Below, piece after piece: positions 4,409 to 13,712 of a DNA stretch of 64,000 nucleotides (its first letter is position 1; the number at the start of each line of letters is the position of its first letter). The notes under the pieces were generated by a model that had not been told where the DNA came from, ran no database searches, and saw nothing but the letters and a program-made list of their open reading frames with translations. The position numbers were made by a program, and so were the translations under genes. This DNA comes from Candidatus Kapaibacterium sp. (lineage in GTDB: Bacteria > Bacteroidota > Ignavibacteria > Kapaibacteriales > UBA2268): positions 3,168,001 to 3,232,000 of the forward strand of contig OY761611.1 in assembly GCA_963664875.1 (NCBI GenBank), in the 5' to 3' direction.

Positions 4409-6601
4409 TTATTGCAGATATAATTCGTACTGCAATTTGAGATTTATCCCTCTTTCAGGCATTATTTTTCTGATTCTTGAAAGATGATTGTAATATTCTC
4501 TGTCGAATATATTATCTATCCTAAATGAAACTGTATTGTAGGCAGTAAGTGCCATAAATGAATACCTTCCATAGATTCCTGTTATGAAATATGATGAAGT
4601 AGCTAACTCAAATTTGTCAACTCTTTCCTGTGAATCTGCGTACTCCGCATTTATTCCCAGCTCAAACTCATTATTGAGATACTGCAGTTCCAAAAATGAT
4701 TTGAATGGAGGAATCTGAGGTAAAGGCATATTCTCTGATTTATTATTACCTATCGTGTAACTCAAATTAGCAATAAAGCGGATACATTTACAAATTTTAT
4801 GATCTAGTTTAGCTTCTATGCCATATAGTTCGGCTTCTACTCCTTTGCTTTGGTAGATTGGTAGCAGTTGACTGTAATTGATTTTCCCGGTGTTGGAGGA
4901 AGAGATAAAATAAGGCAAATAATTATAAAATCCGGTTATTGAAGCAAATACCAAGTCTGACTGCCAATATGCGAATAGTTCGCTACCGTAGCCGTATTCT
5001 CCTTCCAAATCAGGATTGCCTGTTTCGTAGGAGTAAGCTGCAAGATGAGGTCCTTGGCTATAAAGCTCCTCTATAGAAGGTGCTCTTGATGTTCTCGAAA
5101 GATTAGCTCCAAAAAAAATGTTTTTAAAAGTTTCTTTCAGCATCGAAACGGACGCAGAAACAGAGTGAAAGGTTCTGCTCCTTACCGGAAATGACGTTGC
5201 AGCATAGCTTTGGTCAGGGGTAAAATTGTCGTAGCCATATCTAAAAGCAAACTGAAACATATATTCGCCCAGATTAAAATCCTCAAAAAAGTAAGGTGCA
5301 AAAGATGTATTGCTTGTTGGAGGTGTAAAGACAAAACCGCCTAACTTCAAATCCCGATAGTTGAAAAACAGACCCATAGTGCCAAAGTCAAATATGCCGT
5401 AGTTCTTTTGATTCGCTTTCAAATCCAAAGAAAAATCTCTGAATACAAATTCAGCTCCTATAGCTCCATTTGACTCGTATTCGGTATGCTTATAATAATT
5501 TCGCACCAAATCCAGCGAAAAATTATCAATAAACTCACGATGAATGTCTAAGGTCAGTTTTGCTGCATATTTTCTTTTGAGCATTTCTATATCTACACCC
5601 TTGGGGTGTGCACCCACAAACCCACCGGGGATGCCGTAGTTTGAGCTAAACTCGCTCACAGAGGCACCTGCTGAAAAGTCAGGCATTAAGTAAGCTGCTC
5701 CGAAATTGTAGCTTGAAGTTTTAAGCTCTGTATTCTCGAGCACTCCGAGAGGGGAGTGCATATCTCCTGCATTCCTGTGCGAATATGAACCCTTCAATAC
5801 AAAATCAGAAACAGGGATTATAGCTTTTAGATAAGCAAGTTTGCTGTTGTTTGCCGATTCGTAAGAGGTATTGGCGATAAAAGTATTCTCAGAGAGCTTT
5901 TCCTGAGGGATGTCATTTTTAACTACATTTACCACTCCACCAATTGTTGAGTTTGTACTCAGCAACACTTTAGGTCCTCTAATTACTTCAATCTTTTCAG
6001 CTCCCGATGGCTCTACCGTTACTGCATGGTCTGGAGAAGAAGCTGACATATCTGAGACAGGTTCGTTGTCCTGACTAAGCATGATTCTATTTCCTCCGAG
6101 GCCTCTTATAACAGGTCTCGCCGGTGCAGGCCCCATAGATCTGACTGCAATGCCGGCTTCGTTTTTGAGAGTTGCGGCAATAGAAATACCTATCTGTTTT
6201 TGTAGATCTTTCCCATCGAGTTTATTTGCATGCTGCGAGAGCTCCATAAATTTTGAAGCAGTGTTATTGCCTTTAACTACAACGCGGGCGGTGGTTACAC
6301 CTTTAGGAGTCATCTTAAGAACAAAAGGACTCGCCTTTTCTGATTCACTGATTCTTACTATTCGCCTTTGGCTGATGTATCCGATTCGTCTGAATTGCAA
6401 GAAATATTCACCCGGCTCTATAGACTTTATCTCAAATTTCCCATCCTCGTCAGTAACTATCTTTATAGAAGTCTTTTCGACACTGATTATGACATTATCA
6501 ATCGGAGACTCGGATTCTTCGTCTATAACAATACCTGCCAGATCCGCTCCCAAAAGGGGCAGACCTGACAGAATAAAGATAAAAGCAACTATATATTTCA
6601 T
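4409..6601 (-). CDS. TonB-dependent receptor, ZnuD-like metal uptake class, with N-terminal CarboxypepD_reg-like domain
   Basis: Signal peptide; plug motifs RPVIRGLGGNRI, SPDHAV, IEVIRGP; barrel end NIFDREYYNHLS; ELYSQGPHLA. Confidence 0.88.
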   Translation of the reverse strand: MKYIVAFIFILSGLPLLGADLAGIVIDEESESPIDNVIISVEKTSIKIVTDEDGKFEIKSIEPGEYFLQFRRIGYISQRRIVRISESEKASPFVLKMTPKGVTTARVVVKGNNTASKFMELSQHANKLDGKDLQKQIGISIAATLKNEAGIAVRSMGPAPARPVIRGLGGNRIMLSQDNEPVSDMSASSPDHAVTVEPSGAEKIEVIRGPKVLLSTNSTIGGVVNVVKNDIPQEKLSENTFIANTSYESANNSKLAYLKAIIPVSDFVLKGSYSHRNAGDMHSPLGVLENTELKTSSYNFGAAYLMPDFSAGASVSEFSSNYGIPGGFVGAHPKGVDIEMLKRKYAAKLTLDIHREFIDNFSLDLVRNYYKHTEYESNGAIGAEFVFRDFSLDLKANQKNYGIFDFGTMGLFFNYRDLKLGGFVFTPPTSNTSFAPYFFEDFNLGEYMFQFAFRYGYDNFTPDQSYAATSFPVRSRTFHSVSASVSMLKETFKNIFFGANLSRTSRAPSIEELYSQGPHLAAYSYETGNPDLEGEYGYGSELFAYWQSDLVFASITGFYNYLPYFISSSNTGKINYSQLLPIYQSKGVEAELYGIEAKLDHKICKCIRFIANLSYTIGNNKSENMPLPQIPPFKSFLELQYLNNEFELGINAEYADSQERVDKFELATSSYFITGIYGRYSFMALTAYNTVSFRIDNIFDREYYNHLSRIRKIMPERGINLKLQYELYLQ

Positions 6602-6604
6602 TTT

Positions 6605-7066
6605 TTATGGCTTAACTACTTCTACAGGAATTTTTGGTGATTTGAAATCAGGATGATCATTGTGCAATATTCTGATTTCCAAATCTGTTGTACCTTCTTT
6701 TAAAGCTTCAAGCTCAAACATCCATTTTTGTTCGCTGTCCGGTATCAGCTTCAAGACTGTTTCATCTCCTATCAGCCAACCGAGTGATTTATCTGTGTCA
6801 TCAGTCTGAAACTCGTCGCCGTCATGATCGAGGAAAAATACCTCCAATGCCGGCATTGAGGAGCCTTCGTCGAGGGTTATTTTTTTAGCATACAGTTCTT
6901 CGAATTCGCCTTCGAAAATTCGCATGATGGTATTGCCCGAATATTTGATTACAATGCCTTCTGCTTCTGCGTGGTCGTGCTGGTCAGAAACAGGATCGTC
7001 TTCGGAACAAGAGATAAAAGCAAAAGCCATTAAGGCAAATAAGATAGCACTAATTATTGATTTCAT
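6605..7066 (-). CDS. His-containing lipoprotein, probable metal-binding partner of the TonB receptor
   Basis: Lipobox FISC; motifs DQHDHAEAEG and ILHNDHPDF; ends 3 nt before the receptor start. Confidence 0.75.
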   Translation of the reverse strand: MKSIISAILFALMAFAFISCSEDDPVSDQHDHAEAEGIVIKYSGNTIMRIFEGEFEELYAKKITLDEGSSMPALEVFFLDHDGDEFQTDDTDKSLGWLIGDETVLKLIPDSEQKWMFELEALKEGTTDLEIRILHNDHPDFKSPKIPVEVVKP

Positions 7067-7619: not shown

Positions 7620-7970
7620 TTATAAAAGGGGAGGGTCTTTATTGGCAAAGTTGATACTGTAATCCAAAGTGGCAAGTATCGGTAACGTAGCTTCTAATTT
7701 CTCATCAGGAGCAAAAAACACGAAGTTGTAAAGCTGGACTAACGAGAGTATGGAATTTACATTGATAAACTTGCAAACATTACAGTTGACGGCTTTATTT
7801 TCGTCGCTACTGTCTGTTGTTTGAGTTGCTTCCGTAGAGCATCTTTCGGAGCAGCAATGATTTTCATGAGTATGAAAAAATGGAGTATAAACAATATTAA
7901 GTATTGTTGCAGCCAAAAAAGCTACAAGAGAGCGTCTAAATAGTACCAATATCGTCTTTTTGTTTTTCAT
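7620..7970 (-). CDS. DUF2946-like small protein, putative metal-responsive upstream ORF or arrest peptide
   Basis: N-terminal hydrophobic segment, HTHENHCC, CNVC (CxxC), C-terminal NKDPP resembling RAPP/RGPP; lies upstream of the lipoprotein and TonB receptor. Confidence 0.65.
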   Translation of the reverse strand: MKNKKTILVLFRRSLVAFLAATILNIVYTPFFHTHENHCCSERCSTEATQTTDSSDENKAVNCNVCKFINVNSILSLVQLYNFVFFAPDEKLEATLPILATLDYSINFANKDPPLL

Positions 7971-8007: not shown

Positions 8008-8042
8008 AAAAAAAAGTCCGAAAGATATATCTTTCAGACTTT
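8008..8042 (-). terminator. Intrinsic terminator after tatD-OMP
   Basis: AAAGTCcGAAAGAT-at-ATCTTTCaGACTTT hairpin preceded by an A-run (U-tract on - strand). Confidence 0.6.
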
Positions 8043-8092: not shown

Positions 8093-8881
8093 TTAAAACG
8101 GAGGATACCAGATAATTCCAAATCTTGGTATAGAGAAAAATTCGGAAACGTCAGCTTTAAGAGGTACTTCTTTTGAACCGTCGTACTCTACTACTGTCAT
8201 ATCTTCATTAGCTAATTTGAAATCAACGCGCCATTCTGCAGATAAGGTCAACATTCCATAATCATTCATATTGAAGTTGACAAACAAACCCAAACCAAAA
8301 TTCATACCCATCTGATTATTAGTTTTAGGAACTCTGAGACCTGAAACTTCATCAAATACTGAGATATTACTTGAAAAATAAGTAAGCCCAGCAGTAGCAA
8401 AGAAATTTATTCTATTGCGCGGATTAGGTATCCAGTGTGAAGATAGATTATAAACAGTATATGTAAAAGGATCGATATTTACGTTTTCTTCCGCAATTTT
8501 TGTGTTTTTGGAGTAGGTGTAAGCTCCTTCTAAAAGCAGATAATCAGTAACTCCCCAAAGTACCCTTCCGCCGTAAGCTACTATACCATCGTAAGAGATT
8601 GATTTATTTATTATTTCGCCTTCAGTGTTTGTGATTGCCTGAGATTGCACTACTGTATTTGCACCAATCACCGGACCAAATCCAATAAATCTTTCAAAAG
8701 GATTGACCATTACTTCGCCTGTCTCTTCATCGATATATTCGCCGTCTTGAAGCTCTACTTCTTCTCCGTTTTCTTCATCGTAATCTTCTTCGTTTTGAGC
8801 ATACAAAGAAAGAGAGCCAAACACAAAAAACAAAGCTAAAACAAACAGATTGAAAAACTTTCTGGCATTATTAGTAGTCAT
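8093..8881 (-). CDS. Probable in-frame internal gene: outer-membrane beta-barrel protein starting at Met241 of the tatD ORF
   Basis: GAGGT-N7-ATG at 8893-8879; MTTNNARKFFNLFVLALFFVFGSLSLYA|Q reads as a Sec signal peptide; aromatic C-terminal residue. Confidence 0.6.
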   Translation of the reverse strand: MTTNNARKFFNLFVLALFFVFGSLSLYAQNEEDYDEENGEEVELQDGEYIDEETGEVMVNPFERFIGFGPVIGANTVVQSQAITNTEGEIINKSISYDGIVAYGGRVLWGVTDYLLLEGAYTYSKNTKIAEENVNIDPFTYTVYNLSSHWIPNPRNRINFFATAGLTYFSSNISVFDEVSGLRVPKTNNQMGMNFGLGLFVNFNMNDYGMLTLSAEWRVDFKLANEDMTVVEYDGSKEVPLKADVSEFFSIPRFGIIWYPPF

Positions 8882-9601
8882 ATTTATTACCTCTTCGGTT
8901 GATATTGATTTAATCTCGGCTATTTTTTCTGCAACATATCGCACTTTTTCCGGTTCATTTCTCTTACCACGGTATGGCACCGGTGTCATATACGGGGAGT
9001 CTGTTTCTATCATTATCCTATCAATTGGAGCCATACGAACCACTTCATCAAGAGTGGACTTTTTGAAAGTGATGTTACCTGTAAAAGAAACTAAAAAATT
9101 CAAATCCAATGCACGCTTTAGCACTTCAACATCAGACGAGAAACAGTGCAAAACTCCTCGGAGCGAGCCATCTTGCATATTTTTAATATTTTCTATTAGA
9201 TCTTCGTCTGACTCTCTATTGTGAACTATCACCGGCAAATCCAGCTCTTTTGCCAAAGCAAGCTGCTTTTGGAATACTTCTATTTGTTTGTCTCTTGGAT
9301 TAAAATCATAATAATAATCGAGACCAATTTCTCCGATAGCCTTCACTTTTGAGTCATCAGCAGCTGATCTTATAAAACTTTCAGTAGTTTTATCATATTT
9401 TTCTGCATCATGCGGATGTACACCCAGACCGCAGAAAATATTATCATAACTATGGCATAAATCTAATACGCTTTGGAAATTTTTTGGTTCAATACCGGGT
9501 ATAATTATTGCATCTAAACCGGAATCAAAAGCTCTTTTTATGACAGCATCTCTGTCGTCATTGAATGCCTCAGCATCTATATGTGCGTGTGTGTCTATCA
9601 T
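8093..9601 (-). CDS. tatD: TatD family metallo-hydrolase/DNase fused in frame to a signal peptide and outer-membrane beta-barrel domain
   Basis: aa 1-250: IDTHAH, GVHPH, AIGEIGLDY, VHNRES, LHCFS, IETDSPY. Then a hydrophobic segment, acidic linker and amphipathic beta strands ending RFGIIWYPPF. Confidence 0.88.
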   Translation of the reverse strand: MIDTHAHIDAEAFNDDRDAVIKRAFDSGLDAIIIPGIEPKNFQSVLDLCHSYDNIFCGLGVHPHDAEKYDKTTESFIRSAADDSKVKAIGEIGLDYYYDFNPRDKQIEVFQKQLALAKELDLPVIVHNRESDEDLIENIKNMQDGSLRGVLHCFSSDVEVLKRALDLNFLVSFTGNITFKKSTLDEVVRMAPIDRIMIETDSPYMTPVPYRGKRNEPEKVRYVAEKIAEIKSISTEEVINMTTNNARKFFNLFVLALFFVFGSLSLYAQNEEDYDEENGEEVELQDGEYIDEETGEVMVNPFERFIGFGPVIGANTVVQSQAITNTEGEIINKSISYDGIVAYGGRVLWGVTDYLLLEGAYTYSKNTKIAEENVNIDPFTYTVYNLSSHWIPNPRNRINFFATAGLTYFSSNISVFDEVSGLRVPKTNNQMGMNFGLGLFVNFNMNDYGMLTLSAEWRVDFKLANEDMTVVEYDGSKEVPLKADVSEFFSIPRFGIIWYPPF

Positions 9602-9701
9602 TATATCTATTACTTGCCAAACAAAACGTGAATAAAATCGACAAGCAAATATACGATATTTAGAGAAAAAATTGTTTCTGTAGGGAAAATATATGATTTT
9701 A

Positions 9702-10931: not shown

Positions 10932-13712
10932 ATGTTACACAAACATCTTATAGTCGCTATATGTTTGCTGTTATTAAGCATTTCACAAGCTTTCTCATCC
11001 GTAGAATTTAGAGAGCCATATTTAGAAATCCCCACATCTAATTCTATTTGGATTAATTGGAAAACGAATTTTGCCGGAGAAAGCAAAGTTGAATATGGCA
11101 CGTCTGAAACTGCACTAAATAACTCAGCAGTGCCTGTAGTAAATCAGTGGAGTGATGCAGGCTATGATAATAACTATTTTTATCATAGTGTACACTTGAC
11201 CGGCTTATCTGCAAGCACAACTTATTACTATAGAGTAACAACAGGCGATAAAACCTCTCCCATTTATTCTTTCAAAACTTTTCCTAAGCAGGGTGAGTCA
11301 GGTAGAGAAAGTGGTGTTATCAGGTTTGCAATAGTTGGAGATAACCAATTGAAAAACGAACCAAGATACGATTCCATAATGACAAAATTAAAACAGAAAA
11401 TTGAAACTAAATTTGGGAAACCATTTAATCAGCATCTTGACGCAATCCTTATGGTTGGCGATCAGGTTGATGTCGGTACTTTAGATCATTACGAATGGGT
11501 TCATTTCGATAAGACAAAGTATGTTTCGCCCTATGTAGGTACTTCAACAGTTCTTGGCAATCATGAGACTTATGGTACTCTGAAAACAAAGGCATATACA
11601 GACCATTTTCATTACGATGGTTTTGAGTATCAAGGTATAAAAAGCAATACAGAAGAGTATTACGCATATCAAATCGGAAATGCTTTAATAATCAATCTTT
11701 CTACTGAAGGCAACTCTGATTATAACAAAACTCAGTTAGCTTGGTTGCAGTCTGTTGTCGAAGCAGCAGATAATGATCCGACAGTTCAACATATTTTTTC
11801 ACTTGGACACAGACCGTATCAGGCAGAACAGTACATCGGAGATATTTCTAACTGGGTTAGATTTACTGCATTTCCTGTACTAAAAGCAAGTCCAAAAATG
11901 TTTATGCATATTGGTGCCCATCATCATCTTTACGCAAGAGGTCAGGACAAAGACGCACCTGTTTACAACATTATCTCCGGGGGTACTGCTTGGGATCAAT
12001 ATTGGGGTATGTCAAAAGAAGAAGATTACGATGATGTTCAAAAAACTATTTCAAGATGGGCTTATCAGATTGTTGAAATAAATGTAAAAGACCAAACAGT
12101 TGATGTAGAATGCTATTCTGTAGGTTACACTACTAAAATCAATGATTGGACTGATACCAAAACAAAATATGTTTGGGAAGATAATTTGCTGATAGATAAG
12201 TTTACAAGAAAATTTGCAAATATTGTGCCCCCTGCGAAACCGTCTATTACAACTATTGTCCAAGACTCAATCGAATTACCATTTACATTTTCGAGTTCTG
12301 AATACTTATCAGAAGCAGGAGAGCTTCATAACTCGACTCAATTCCAAGTATCTCAAGATTTACAGTTTTCAATTAAAGAGCTTGATTTGCTAAGAGATTT
12401 TGAGAATCTGTTTGGCATGGGAGAGCATCCATGGGAATCAAAAGACATAAACGCAGGAATTGATATCTTTAAATATGAAGTGCCACAAGGTTCGATTGGA
12501 AATGGTACACACTATATCCGCGTGAGGCATAGAGATAGAAACTTGACTTGGTCTGATTGGTCAGAACCGCTTTCTTTCAATGTTAAGAATAGTATTGTAA
12601 TCAATCCTGAACTTACTACAAATTCAAAATATTTTGAAATTGGAGATACTATTGTCGTTACCTACTCTGGATGTAGCGGCAATCTCAAAGATTGGATAGG
12701 TATATACAAATCAGGAGAAACTCCGGGAGAAGTCAATTCGACAGAATGGGCCTATCTTACAGGGCCTTCCGGTATCGCTAAATTTACTTTGAAAGAAAAC
12801 GGCAAATACTATATTACTTTGATGGAAAATGATGGGTATAACGAAATAGTTGACAGAATTGACATCACTGTAGGACAAAAAGCAATACTCGAAACAAGTA
12901 AATTTAGTTATAAAGAGCAGGAAAAACTTATTATTAACTTCAAAAACTGCCCTATAAATCAAAATGATTGGATTGGAATTTATCGTATCGGAAAAGAACC
13001 CGGCTCTGTCGCTTCTGACACATGGACTTACATCACTCAAGATTCCGGTTCCGCAGAGTTTGACGCATTACCAAAGGGATATTATTTCGCACAATACTTC
13101 CTTACGGACGGATACGAACCCGCAAGTGATAGAATTTATTTTTCAGTCGGTGACACTATCGCCAGCATTTCTACAAATAAACTTACATATAATCTTGGAG
13201 ACTTGATTTCTGTCAATTTTACTGATGGACCGGGTATTGCAAAAGATTACTTAGGAATGTATAAAAAAGGTGACGACCCCAATGTAAACCCTTTATTAAG
13301 TTATGTTTACGTTGAAGGTAAACCATCTGGCACTGCTGTATTTGAAGGTAATAATCTGCCAAAAGAAAAAGGAGATTACTTTGTTGTTTTCTTCACTAAC
13401 GATTCTTATAATGAGATTTCTAACAGAGCATATTTTACGGTCAAATCATCAGTCAGTGTGTTAGAGGAGAGTGATGATTTTGTAAAACTTTATCCGAATC
13501 CTTCTTCAAATGATGTTTCGTTTGTACAGTCAACTTACCCTATTGAAAAGATTGATATTTATGATAATATGGGAAGGCTGCTCTTTACTAAACAGGTAAA
13601 TAATGAGTCAAATAGCTCAGCAATTTTAAATCATAATTTGCCTGCCGGTGTTTACTATGTCAAAGTTTTCTCAAATAAAGTTTACACAGTAAAAATGGTT
13701 GTAAGCGAATAA
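10932..13712 (+). CDS. Secreted purple acid phosphatase-like metallophosphoesterase with FN3 domain, three Ig-like DWIGIY repeats and T9SS-type C-terminal domain
   Basis: GDNQ, GDQVD, GNHE, GHRP, GAHHHLYAR motifs; KLYPNPS...LPAGVYYVKV...KMVV tail; AGGAG SD and TATATTTG promoter at 10893-10900. Confidence 0.88.
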   Translation: MLHKHLIVAICLLLLSISQAFSSVEFREPYLEIPTSNSIWINWKTNFAGESKVEYGTSETALNNSAVPVVNQWSDAGYDNNYFYHSVHLTGLSASTTYYYRVTTGDKTSPIYSFKTFPKQGESGRESGVIRFAIVGDNQLKNEPRYDSIMTKLKQKIETKFGKPFNQHLDAILMVGDQVDVGTLDHYEWVHFDKTKYVSPYVGTSTVLGNHETYGTLKTKAYTDHFHYDGFEYQGIKSNTEEYYAYQIGNALIINLSTEGNSDYNKTQLAWLQSVVEAADNDPTVQHIFSLGHRPYQAEQYIGDISNWVRFTAFPVLKASPKMFMHIGAHHHLYARGQDKDAPVYNIISGGTAWDQYWGMSKEEDYDDVQKTISRWAYQIVEINVKDQTVDVECYSVGYTTKINDWTDTKTKYVWEDNLLIDKFTRKFANIVPPAKPSITTIVQDSIELPFTFSSSEYLSEAGELHNSTQFQVSQDLQFSIKELDLLRDFENLFGMGEHPWESKDINAGIDIFKYEVPQGSIGNGTHYIRVRHRDRNLTWSDWSEPLSFNVKNSIVINPELTTNSKYFEIGDTIVVTYSGCSGNLKDWIGIYKSGETPGEVNSTEWAYLTGPSGIAKFTLKENGKYYITLMENDGYNEIVDRIDITVGQKAILETSKFSYKEQEKLIINFKNCPINQNDWIGIYRIGKEPGSVASDTWTYITQDSGSAEFDALPKGYYFAQYFLTDGYEPASDRIYFSVGDTIASISTNKLTYNLGDLISVNFTDGPGIAKDYLGMYKKGDDPNVNPLLSYVYVEGKPSGTAVFEGNNLPKEKGDYFVVFFTNDSYNEISNRAYFTVKSSVSVLEESDDFVKLYPNPSSNDVSFVQSTYPIEKIDIYDNMGRLLFTKQVNNESNSSAILNHNLPAGVYYVKVFSNKVYTVKMVVSE

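Follow-up and report, generated by a model that had tools for sequence, protein, structure and literature searches.

Here, we describe an open reading frame (ORF) of Candidatus Kapaibacterium sp. (class Ignavibacteria, order Kapaibacteriales, phylum Bacteroidota) in which the gene for a TatD-family nuclease lacks a stop codon of its own and continues, in the same frame, through a hydrophobic segment and an acidic linker into a predicted outer-membrane beta-barrel. The ORF lies on the minus strand of a 64,000-nucleotide stretch of contig OY761611.1 (assembly GCA_963664875.1, positions 3,168,001 to 3,232,000; this whole stretch is hereafter the window, numbered from its first letter) and is probably a conserved in-frame nested gene, with one frame yielding two products, a full-length polypeptide and a barrel pre-protein begun at an internal methionine codon, Met241, within the last helix of TatD. 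The evidence that carries this reading is comparative: the fusion persists as a single open frame across a clade of related genomes, the internal ATG and a Shine-Dalgarno (SD) sequence ahead of it are retained and relocate together, and synonymous codon choice at the SD position is strongly biased. The ORF consists of the following parts.

8093..9601, minus strand: the whole ORF, 502 amino acids plus stop, comprising TatD, signal peptide, acidic linker and outer-membrane beta-barrel; one open frame in relatives.
8849..9601, minus strand: TatD metal-dependent nuclease domain, residues 1-251 (PF01026, TIGR00010, invariant columns, AlphaFold2 pLDDT about 97).
8889..8893, minus strand: SD-like GAGGT from the codons of E237 (GAG) and V238, 7 nt before the internal ATG (16S rRNA tail ...CACCUCCUUUC; GAG bias).
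8879..8881, minus strand: Met241 codon, the proposed second start, in frame and inside TatD's terminal helix (ATG conserved in 63/67 fused genes).
8798..8881, minus strand: predicted Sec signal peptide, M241-A268 (n-region MTTNNARKFF, which is the end of TatD's last helix, then h-region and c-region LYA).
8699..8797, minus strand: acidic, Tyr/Glu-rich linker from Q269, the predicted mature N-terminus (low pLDDT at 262-277).
8096..8698, minus strand: outer-membrane beta-barrel of the 8-stranded type, ending at F502 (AlphaFold2 pLDDT 92.5; Foldseek and VIA matches; weak PF13505).

By its profile matches and metal-site positions, the N-terminal half of this single, ATG-initiated ORF is a TatD-family nuclease. 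PF01026 (TatD_DNase) aligns to residues 2-251 over profile positions 1-253 of 253 (E 3.2e-88; 295.8 bits, cut-off 27), TIGR00010 scores 287.3 bits against a cut-off of 206, and H5, H7, E91, H127, H152 and D201, which we take to be the metal-ligand positions of TatD, show no variation among 64 aligned fused proteins. A domain match over the whole length and the retention of all conserved metal-ligand positions are shared with the stand-alone TatD, YcfH and YabD nucleases; stand-alone TatDs, however, stop 0-15 residues after the ...LF motif, where the fused clade has no stop. Here, the TatD end (...NARKFF) passes without a stop codon into NLFVLALFFVFGSLSLYA, followed by Q269, an acidic stretch and the barrel. 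In an AlphaFold2 model of the full-length protein (mean pLDDT 91.1), the last TatD helix spans residues 235-250, with Met241 inside it, and the hydrophobic segment continues straight from this helix. A preliminary description of the window, made by a model from the sequence alone, had read the frame as a complete TatD domain, a hydrophobic segment, an acidic linker and a barrel ending in Phe, and had placed Met241 within the usual last TatD helix; the profiles and the structure models bear out both points. This is the only PF01026 gene in the genome, and purifying selection, as judged from sequence comparison, acts on both the TatD and the barrel halves.

The fusion is retained across the order and beyond. 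An order-wide search gave matches in 40 of 41 genomes, the missing one (G019) being 88% complete, and both halves lie in one open, stop-free frame of 454-545 aa in 39 of these 40, the remaining one (G009) being cut by a contig end. When the barrel half alone was searched against 401 genomes of the phylum, 26 matched, including all 22 sampled from four families of the order, in which the matches were always found within frames of 480-674 aa. A class-wide TatD search covered 121 genomes, and a quick IQ-TREE tree of the TatD domain took in 96 class members; four loci (L043, L045, L057 and L060), for which a motif search found no TatD ORF, were excluded. Three states of TatD were distinguished in the class: 67 loci carry a hydrophobic segment and an exported C-terminus (the window's order and the families f16 and f66), 13 loci from other families (L026-L038) are fused to a radical-SAM-like half with a CxxxCxxC motif in proteins of 452-475 aa, and 16 loci are unfused, with proteins of 257-275 aa. 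On this tree, all 67 signal-fused genes fall into a single clade (SH-aLRT 98) of at least 13 families, in which f66 is the sister lineage; the frame is continuous in 67/67, and separate tatD and barrel genes occur in none of the 67 sampled members. The question of whether relatives keep the fusion, raised by the preliminary description, is thus answered in the affirmative, and its argument that a simple lost stop is unlikely, given that a stop after the TatD helix would cut the barrel off from its start codon, is sound. Nor was an assembly error at the junction, which it had also considered, seen: DNA contigs from three runs, two of them possibly the window's own source, span the junction unchanged, and the relatives agree.

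In f66 (L023, L024 and L025), where the proteins reach 590-660 aa, the TatD-signal-AQ junction is unchanged, and the linker consists of ~90-110 highly charged, repeat-like residues (RRE..EE..RRQ..) ahead of a barrel that matches the profile of a 64-sequence alignment (A1) weakly (E 8e-10 and 7e-7). The radical-SAM fusions represent a second, independent loss of the TatD stop in the class. A search for related loci with the full-length alignment yielded 80 loci, of which L101 (Ignavibacteriae bacterium) is the sole full-length relative and the other 79 served as outside controls; a single protein used as query led to no confirmed locus, and the barrel alignment contains no stretch of sufficient conservation for such a search. 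Around tatD in the 29 non-fused loci, no separate barrel gene was found within the ~2.5 kb downstream and 0.6 kb upstream that were examined. A literature search on TatD fusions, signal peptides, outer-membrane barrels and Ignavibacteria yielded no account of a TatD-barrel fusion.

The internal ATG was compared across TatD genes. With positions counted in codons before the TatD end, an ATG is present in the interval from -18 to -4 (15 codons) in 63/67 signal-fused genes, in 0/29 radical-SAM-fused or unfused class members, and in 16/79 TatDs of other phyla (L101 being left out as fused). Of the 63 ATGs in fused genes, 39 lie at -10 or -11, 16 at -18 and 8 elsewhere (-4, -12, -13, -16), and well-supported branches of the tree force at least three separate origins of the -18 state. 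The 16S rRNA of this genome ends in ...GGATCACCTCCTTTC, and SD potential was scored as a GGAG, GAGG or AGGA 4-mer located 5-17 nt upstream of a start. Such a 4-mer precedes the internal ATG in 42/63 fused genes; in this genome, where SD use is moderate, the corresponding rate is 31% among 2,113 ORFs (200 aa or longer, taken from their first ATG), 4.5% among 17,324 in-frame ATGs inside ORFs, and 3.3% among control windows placed upstream. In the window, the GAGGT at 8893-8889 stands 7 nt before the Met241 ATG, exactly as the preliminary description had located it. The primary tatD start, by comparison, is poorly equipped: a 4-mer precedes it in only 5/67 fused genes, and in the window, as in 62/67 fused relatives, the sequence ahead of it (9602-9625, ...GCAAGTAATAGATATA-ATG) contains no SD-like motif, which suggests that TatD may be weakly translated relative to the barrel.

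The choice between synonymous codons points to the same site. In the group with the ATG at -10, Glu(-14), that is, the E237 column, is encoded by GAG, which creates GAGGT, in 25/27 genes vs 7.7 expected from each gene's own Glu codon usage, and Glu(-22) is unbiased (GAG in 8/32 vs 10.2 expected). In the group with the ATG at -18, the pattern is transposed: Glu(-22) is GAG, yielding GGAG or GAGG, in 14/15 vs 6.7 expected, and Glu(-14) is GAG in only 2/10 vs 4.7 expected. The SD thus shifts when the ATG shifts between lineages, and the spacing of the two, 7-10 nt, is that of initiation sites. In a gene-wide scan of every conserved degenerate column, E237 is the top outlier of 180 columns in the -10 group, with P 1.4e-13 against 4.6e-5 for the runner-up (values that ignore the relatedness of the sequences and hence overstate their independence), and the Lys, Ala and Glu codons just 5' of the ATG rank 2-4 of 239 in the -18 group. 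Since the fused proteins are only 36-50% identical between families, the shared synonymous state is unlikely to have been inherited by chance alone. An ATG and an SD that are conserved, relocate together, and are under synonymous-site selection strongly support the view that this is a working initiation site, and the proposal that an outer-membrane protein is made from the internal start, for which the preliminary description had asked whether relatives keep the Met and its SD, gains firm comparative backing.

The product of such an internal start would open with a signal peptide. Residues 241-268 read MTTNNARKFFNLFVLALFFVFGSLSLYA, followed by Q269, and the n-region is positively charged through R247 and K248. 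An [AS]|Q motif follows the hydrophobic core in 65/67 fused genes, the exceptions being L065 and L075; among these 65, A occupies position -1 in 56 cases and S in 9, and position -3 is usually filled by L, A, V, G, S or T in the scored relatives. Median values across the fused relatives are 18 aa between the TatD end and the cut site and 14 residues for the longest uncharged run. The AQ motif, like the ATG and the SD, is under selection. According to a published analysis, Q at +1 is the preferred context of signal peptidase I (SPase I) in Bacteroidetes, with a Q-value of 77% for Ignavibacterium album (PMC5837995). A crude whole-genome screen of the present genome (G000) found a -3/-1 motif plus Q in 165/555 signal-like N-termini vs 20/647 for a control window, a ~ten-fold enrichment, and the organism appears to follow the Bacteroidetes 'Q-rule', in agreement with the preliminary description, which had called +1 Gln typical of Bacteroidota SPase I substrates. 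The genome holds two gene matches to S26 signal peptidase and six to the Omp85 family (Omp85/BamA).

Residues 269-301 form a 33-residue, strongly acidic stretch rich in Glu, Asp and Tyr. From Q(+1) to the first barrel motif, the median distance is 26 residues (range 6-91), and it is 6-16 residues in seven of the 65 scored relatives; with linkers this short, an uncleaved barrel could not reach the outer membrane from the inner membrane. The hydrophobic segment therefore appears to be retained as a cleavable signal peptide, with cleavage expected at A268|Q269. Only in the product of the internal start, which the comparison with relatives supports, would this segment stand at the N-terminus of a polypeptide. 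The preliminary description had recognized a Sec signal with Gln at +1 from Met241 onwards, and had proposed a polyprotein that SPase I would split; the first has the features expected of such a signal, and the second is supported computationally by the conserved [AS]|Q, the signal-length core, the short linkers, the presence of SPase I and Omp85 genes, and the single TatD.

The C-terminal half is confidently predicted to be an OmpA/OmpW-like outer-membrane barrel with a closed transmembrane fold. The AlphaFold2 model built from alignment A1 has a mean pLDDT of 92.5, a pTM of 0.85, and long strands throughout, over the ~200 residues that follow the acidic stretch and end in WYPPF. Foldseek against the PDB gave 64 matches at E <= 1e-3, with OmpA, OmpT, Ail, NspA, OprG, OmpW and OmpX the top ones listed, all outer-membrane barrels, so that the half folds, in prediction, as the preliminary description had expected. 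A VIA-align comparison over 48,161 chains ranked first the Legionella Dot/Icm-associated porin 9nh2 (Z 17.9), followed by the OprF N-domain (Z 17.7; rmsd 2.1 over 133 residues), NspA (17.3), OmpW (16.8), OmpA (16.2) and PagL (15.7). Matching clusters in a language-model atlas, of 205-225 aa, are labelled 'outer membrane protein beta-barrel'. The predicted fold (Z 15-18), the C-terminal Phe, and the length of ~200 aa are shared with OmpA, OprF N-domains, NspA, OmpW and OmpX, whereas the distinct sequence family, the acidic N-terminal extension, and the Pfam score under the cut-off set it apart from known 8-stranded barrels.

Among representative proteins, nearly all strong matches to the barrel are attached to TatD. 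A barrel profile searched against 1.84 billion representative proteins gave 85 matches at E <= 1e-3 and 51 at E <= 1e-30, and 31 of these 51 are 465-543 aa long, that is, fused to TatD. Among the 20 shorter strong matches, 19 were inspected: nine carry a truncated TatD ahead of the barrel, three start at or near the internal Met, four start inside or after the signal segment, and three, P0058 among them, have other N-termini. Stand-alone relatives of the barrel are rare; P0058 (238 aa, with a typical signal peptide of its own) and P0040 (251 aa) have N-termini that do not derive from TatD, and could be descendants of an unfused ancestor or escapes from the fusion. A word-sharing homologue search with the C-terminal half returned 8 matches, each carrying TatD, and the database label on these fused proteins is PF01026 only.

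Two further features frame the proposed transcript.

9646..9653, minus strand: TATATTTG, a match to TAnnTTTG, 45 nt upstream of the tatD start (consensus match only).
8013..8042, minus strand: hairpin with a T run resembling an intrinsic terminator, 50 nt after the stop.

We take TAnnTTTG to be the Bacteroidota-type -7 promoter element. In the scheme that we propose, a single mRNA would run from the promoter-like motif at ~9650 to the terminator at ~8030 and carry one reading frame with two initiation sites. Ribosomes starting at 9601, without an SD, would translate TatD and, meeting no stop, read through the segment, the linker and the barrel; those starting at the SD-equipped Met241 (8881) would make only a classical pre-protein, the signal peptide of which takes its positive n-region from the ten residues that close TatD's final helix. 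By either route, the hydrophobic segment would carry the C-terminal part through Sec, SPase I would cut at A268|Q269, and BAM would fold the barrel into the outer membrane. After the full-length route, TatD 1-268 would remain cytoplasmic, anchored to the inner membrane through the signal segment at least until another protease removes that segment. Since tatD occurs once in the genome and lacks a stop codon between enzyme and signal, the full-length TatD-signal-barrel precursor must be made too. The use of both starts, the cleavage, the localization, and any functional link between nuclease and barrel are inferred. The tatD/barrel arrangement is probably locked in: a stop codon placed downstream of the TatD helix would abolish the barrel pre-protein, one upstream of Met241 would cost TatD its final helix, and the two genes could come apart only if the overlap were duplicated.

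Several observations weigh against the nested gene, in addition to the relatedness that inflates the P values of the codon scan. The coding strand contains no TAnnTTTG from the tatD start down to Met241 (9601-8882), and sigma-70-like matches in the search for an internal promoter did not rise above shuffle level, so that, with no internal promoter motif, both products would depend on one mRNA. The sole RNA run, a metatranscriptome, contained 5% of the sampled words and gave three short contigs in the window, only one of them reaching the ORF, within its final 50 bases. On the side of the barrel, Pfam OMP_b-brl (PF13505) scores 17.9-19.6 bits, under the cut-off of 28.7, which makes the barrel a sequence family of its own, and an aromatic C-terminal residue (F, W or Y) is present in only 44/67 relatives. 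As a measure of SD strength, the free energy of pairing with the 16S tail was a poor discriminator between genuine starts and internal ATGs (7.5% of the latter reach -6.6 kcal/mol), which is why the 4-mer measure was adopted. By that measure, 21/63 internal ATGs are without an SD, mostly in the G+C-richer family f16 and in f66. Finally, four of the 67 fused genes (L025, L075, L076 and L081) have no ATG in the interval; L025 has a GTG at -18 behind GGAG, and the other three offer only GTG or TTG candidates without a good SD, none of them convincing.

Other readings of the fusion were weighed against these data. The fusion may be a functional unit, in which the sole TatD is Sec-targeted, tail-anchored at the inner membrane, and kept in fixed stoichiometry with the barrel for one shared process, such as taking up and breaking down extracellular DNA or nucleotides, or managing DNA at the envelope. 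Additional barrel would then come from the internal start, and the gene would represent a new way to localize a housekeeping nuclease, coupling a cytoplasmic and an outer-membrane protein through codons with two meanings. We regard this proposal as tentative and, on balance, unlikely.

Alternatively, only the polyprotein may be made, the full-length product being cut by SPase I, with the ATG and the SD-like motif serving another role, such as an SD-like translational pause that, shortly ahead of the signal segment's emergence, would aid membrane targeting. The continuous frame in all 67 genes and the conserved AQ site fit this reading, as do the 21 internal ATGs without an SD and the four genes without an ATG. 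A pause, however, needs no start codon, yet an ATG is present in 63/67 fused genes vs 0/29 non-fused class members and travels with its SD at a spacing of 7-10 nt; we therefore consider this reading quite improbable. The gene may also have two starts and yet release TatD in soluble form, through an intramembrane or signal-peptide peptidase or through frameshifting or drop-off, so that the fusion would be no more than a frozen overlap; this variant departs from our scheme only at its final step. The single copy and the invariant active site suggest that TatD has kept a housekeeping role, and the absence of a barrel gene beside tatD in all 29 non-fused loci means that no functional pairing is seen outside the clade, both of which agree with this variant; even so, we are doubtful that it holds.

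A signal anchor that remains uncleaved would yield a bitopic inner-membrane protein, with TatD inside and the beta-rich domain in the periplasm or the outer membrane, that is, a trans-envelope tether. The direct extension of TatD's last helix by the hydrophobic segment and the acidic linkers of 6-91 residues are in keeping with such a protein, which is nevertheless highly improbable in the face of an uncharged core of signal-peptide length (median 14), an [AS]|Q site in 65/67, the 6-16-residue linkers of several relatives, which cannot bridge the periplasm, and a fold that resembles membrane-embedded outer-membrane barrels (Z 15-18). An artefact of assembly or sequencing, or a tatD gene that recently shed its stop in the manner of a pseudogene, finds no support and is ruled out by fusion in 67/67 members of a clade of at least 13 families, by contigs of three runs that bridge the junction unchanged, and by purifying selection on both halves.

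The nested-gene reading joins elements that are known separately. In-frame internal initiation that gives a separate C-terminal protein is familiar from IF2 alpha/beta and phage lambda C/Nu3, and polyproteins cut by signal peptidase are exemplified by FbcH, the Bradyrhizobium cytochrome b-c1 precursor, which is split at an internal signal peptide. As in FbcH, a signal-like segment lies within a longer polypeptide, with an exported domain after it, and cleavage would give two proteins; unlike in FbcH, a soluble cytoplasmic enzyme rather than a membrane protein stands upstream, an outer-membrane barrel follows it, and there is an additional internal start. The TatD-radical SAM fusions L026-L038 likewise have a C-terminal partner and no stop after the last helix, but they lack the hydrophobic segment and the AQ site, none of the 13 has an ATG in the -18 to -4 interval, and their partner is cytoplasmic.

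The closest parallel for the internal start is arcB of Escherichia coli, in which a conserved internal translation initiation site (iTIS) and SD, in frame, give ArcB-C, a discrete C-terminal protein (bioRxiv 10.1101/520783). The two cases share a conserved second in-frame start with an SD-like sequence within the ORF and a 3'-coterminal product that is a discrete domain. Unlike in genes of the arcB type, the internal product here would open with a signal peptide and be bound for a compartment, the outer membrane, other than that of the enzyme; the parts are unrelated in function, a helix of the enzyme is reused as a signal n-region, and the case is known from sequence comparison. What is new is the combination of a soluble housekeeping nuclease, a signal n-region derived from its helix, and an outer-membrane barrel, together with conservation in the order and two further families.

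Around the ORF, an Rfam scan of the window found no RNA family. Past the terminator, 7620-7970 (minus strand) encodes 116 aa with an N-terminal hydrophobic segment and several Cys and His residues (HENHCCSERC...CNVC). From the ORF list, 4409-6601 (minus strand) is a 730-aa ORF resembling a TonB-dependent receptor, adjoined by a small lipoprotein-like ORF at 6605-7066 (minus strand), and 10932-13712 (plus strand) encodes a secreted-looking protein of 926 aa, the C-terminus of which appears to resemble a type IX secretion sorting domain.

The finding bears first on annotation: the barrel family is invisible in databases, where it is filed solely under PF01026, and the relocating ATG and SD, together with the synonymous constraint, offer a template for finding nested genes that are annotated as a single 'TatD family hydrolase'. 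It further illustrates that overlapping in frame can tie two unrelated genes to each other, with ~ten codons conserved over a whole order and beyond in a double role, as the end of an enzyme helix and as the n-region of a signal peptide. For this Ignavibacteria-like clade, the prediction is that its only TatD nuclease would be made with a membrane anchor, which would bear on the cellular role of TatD.

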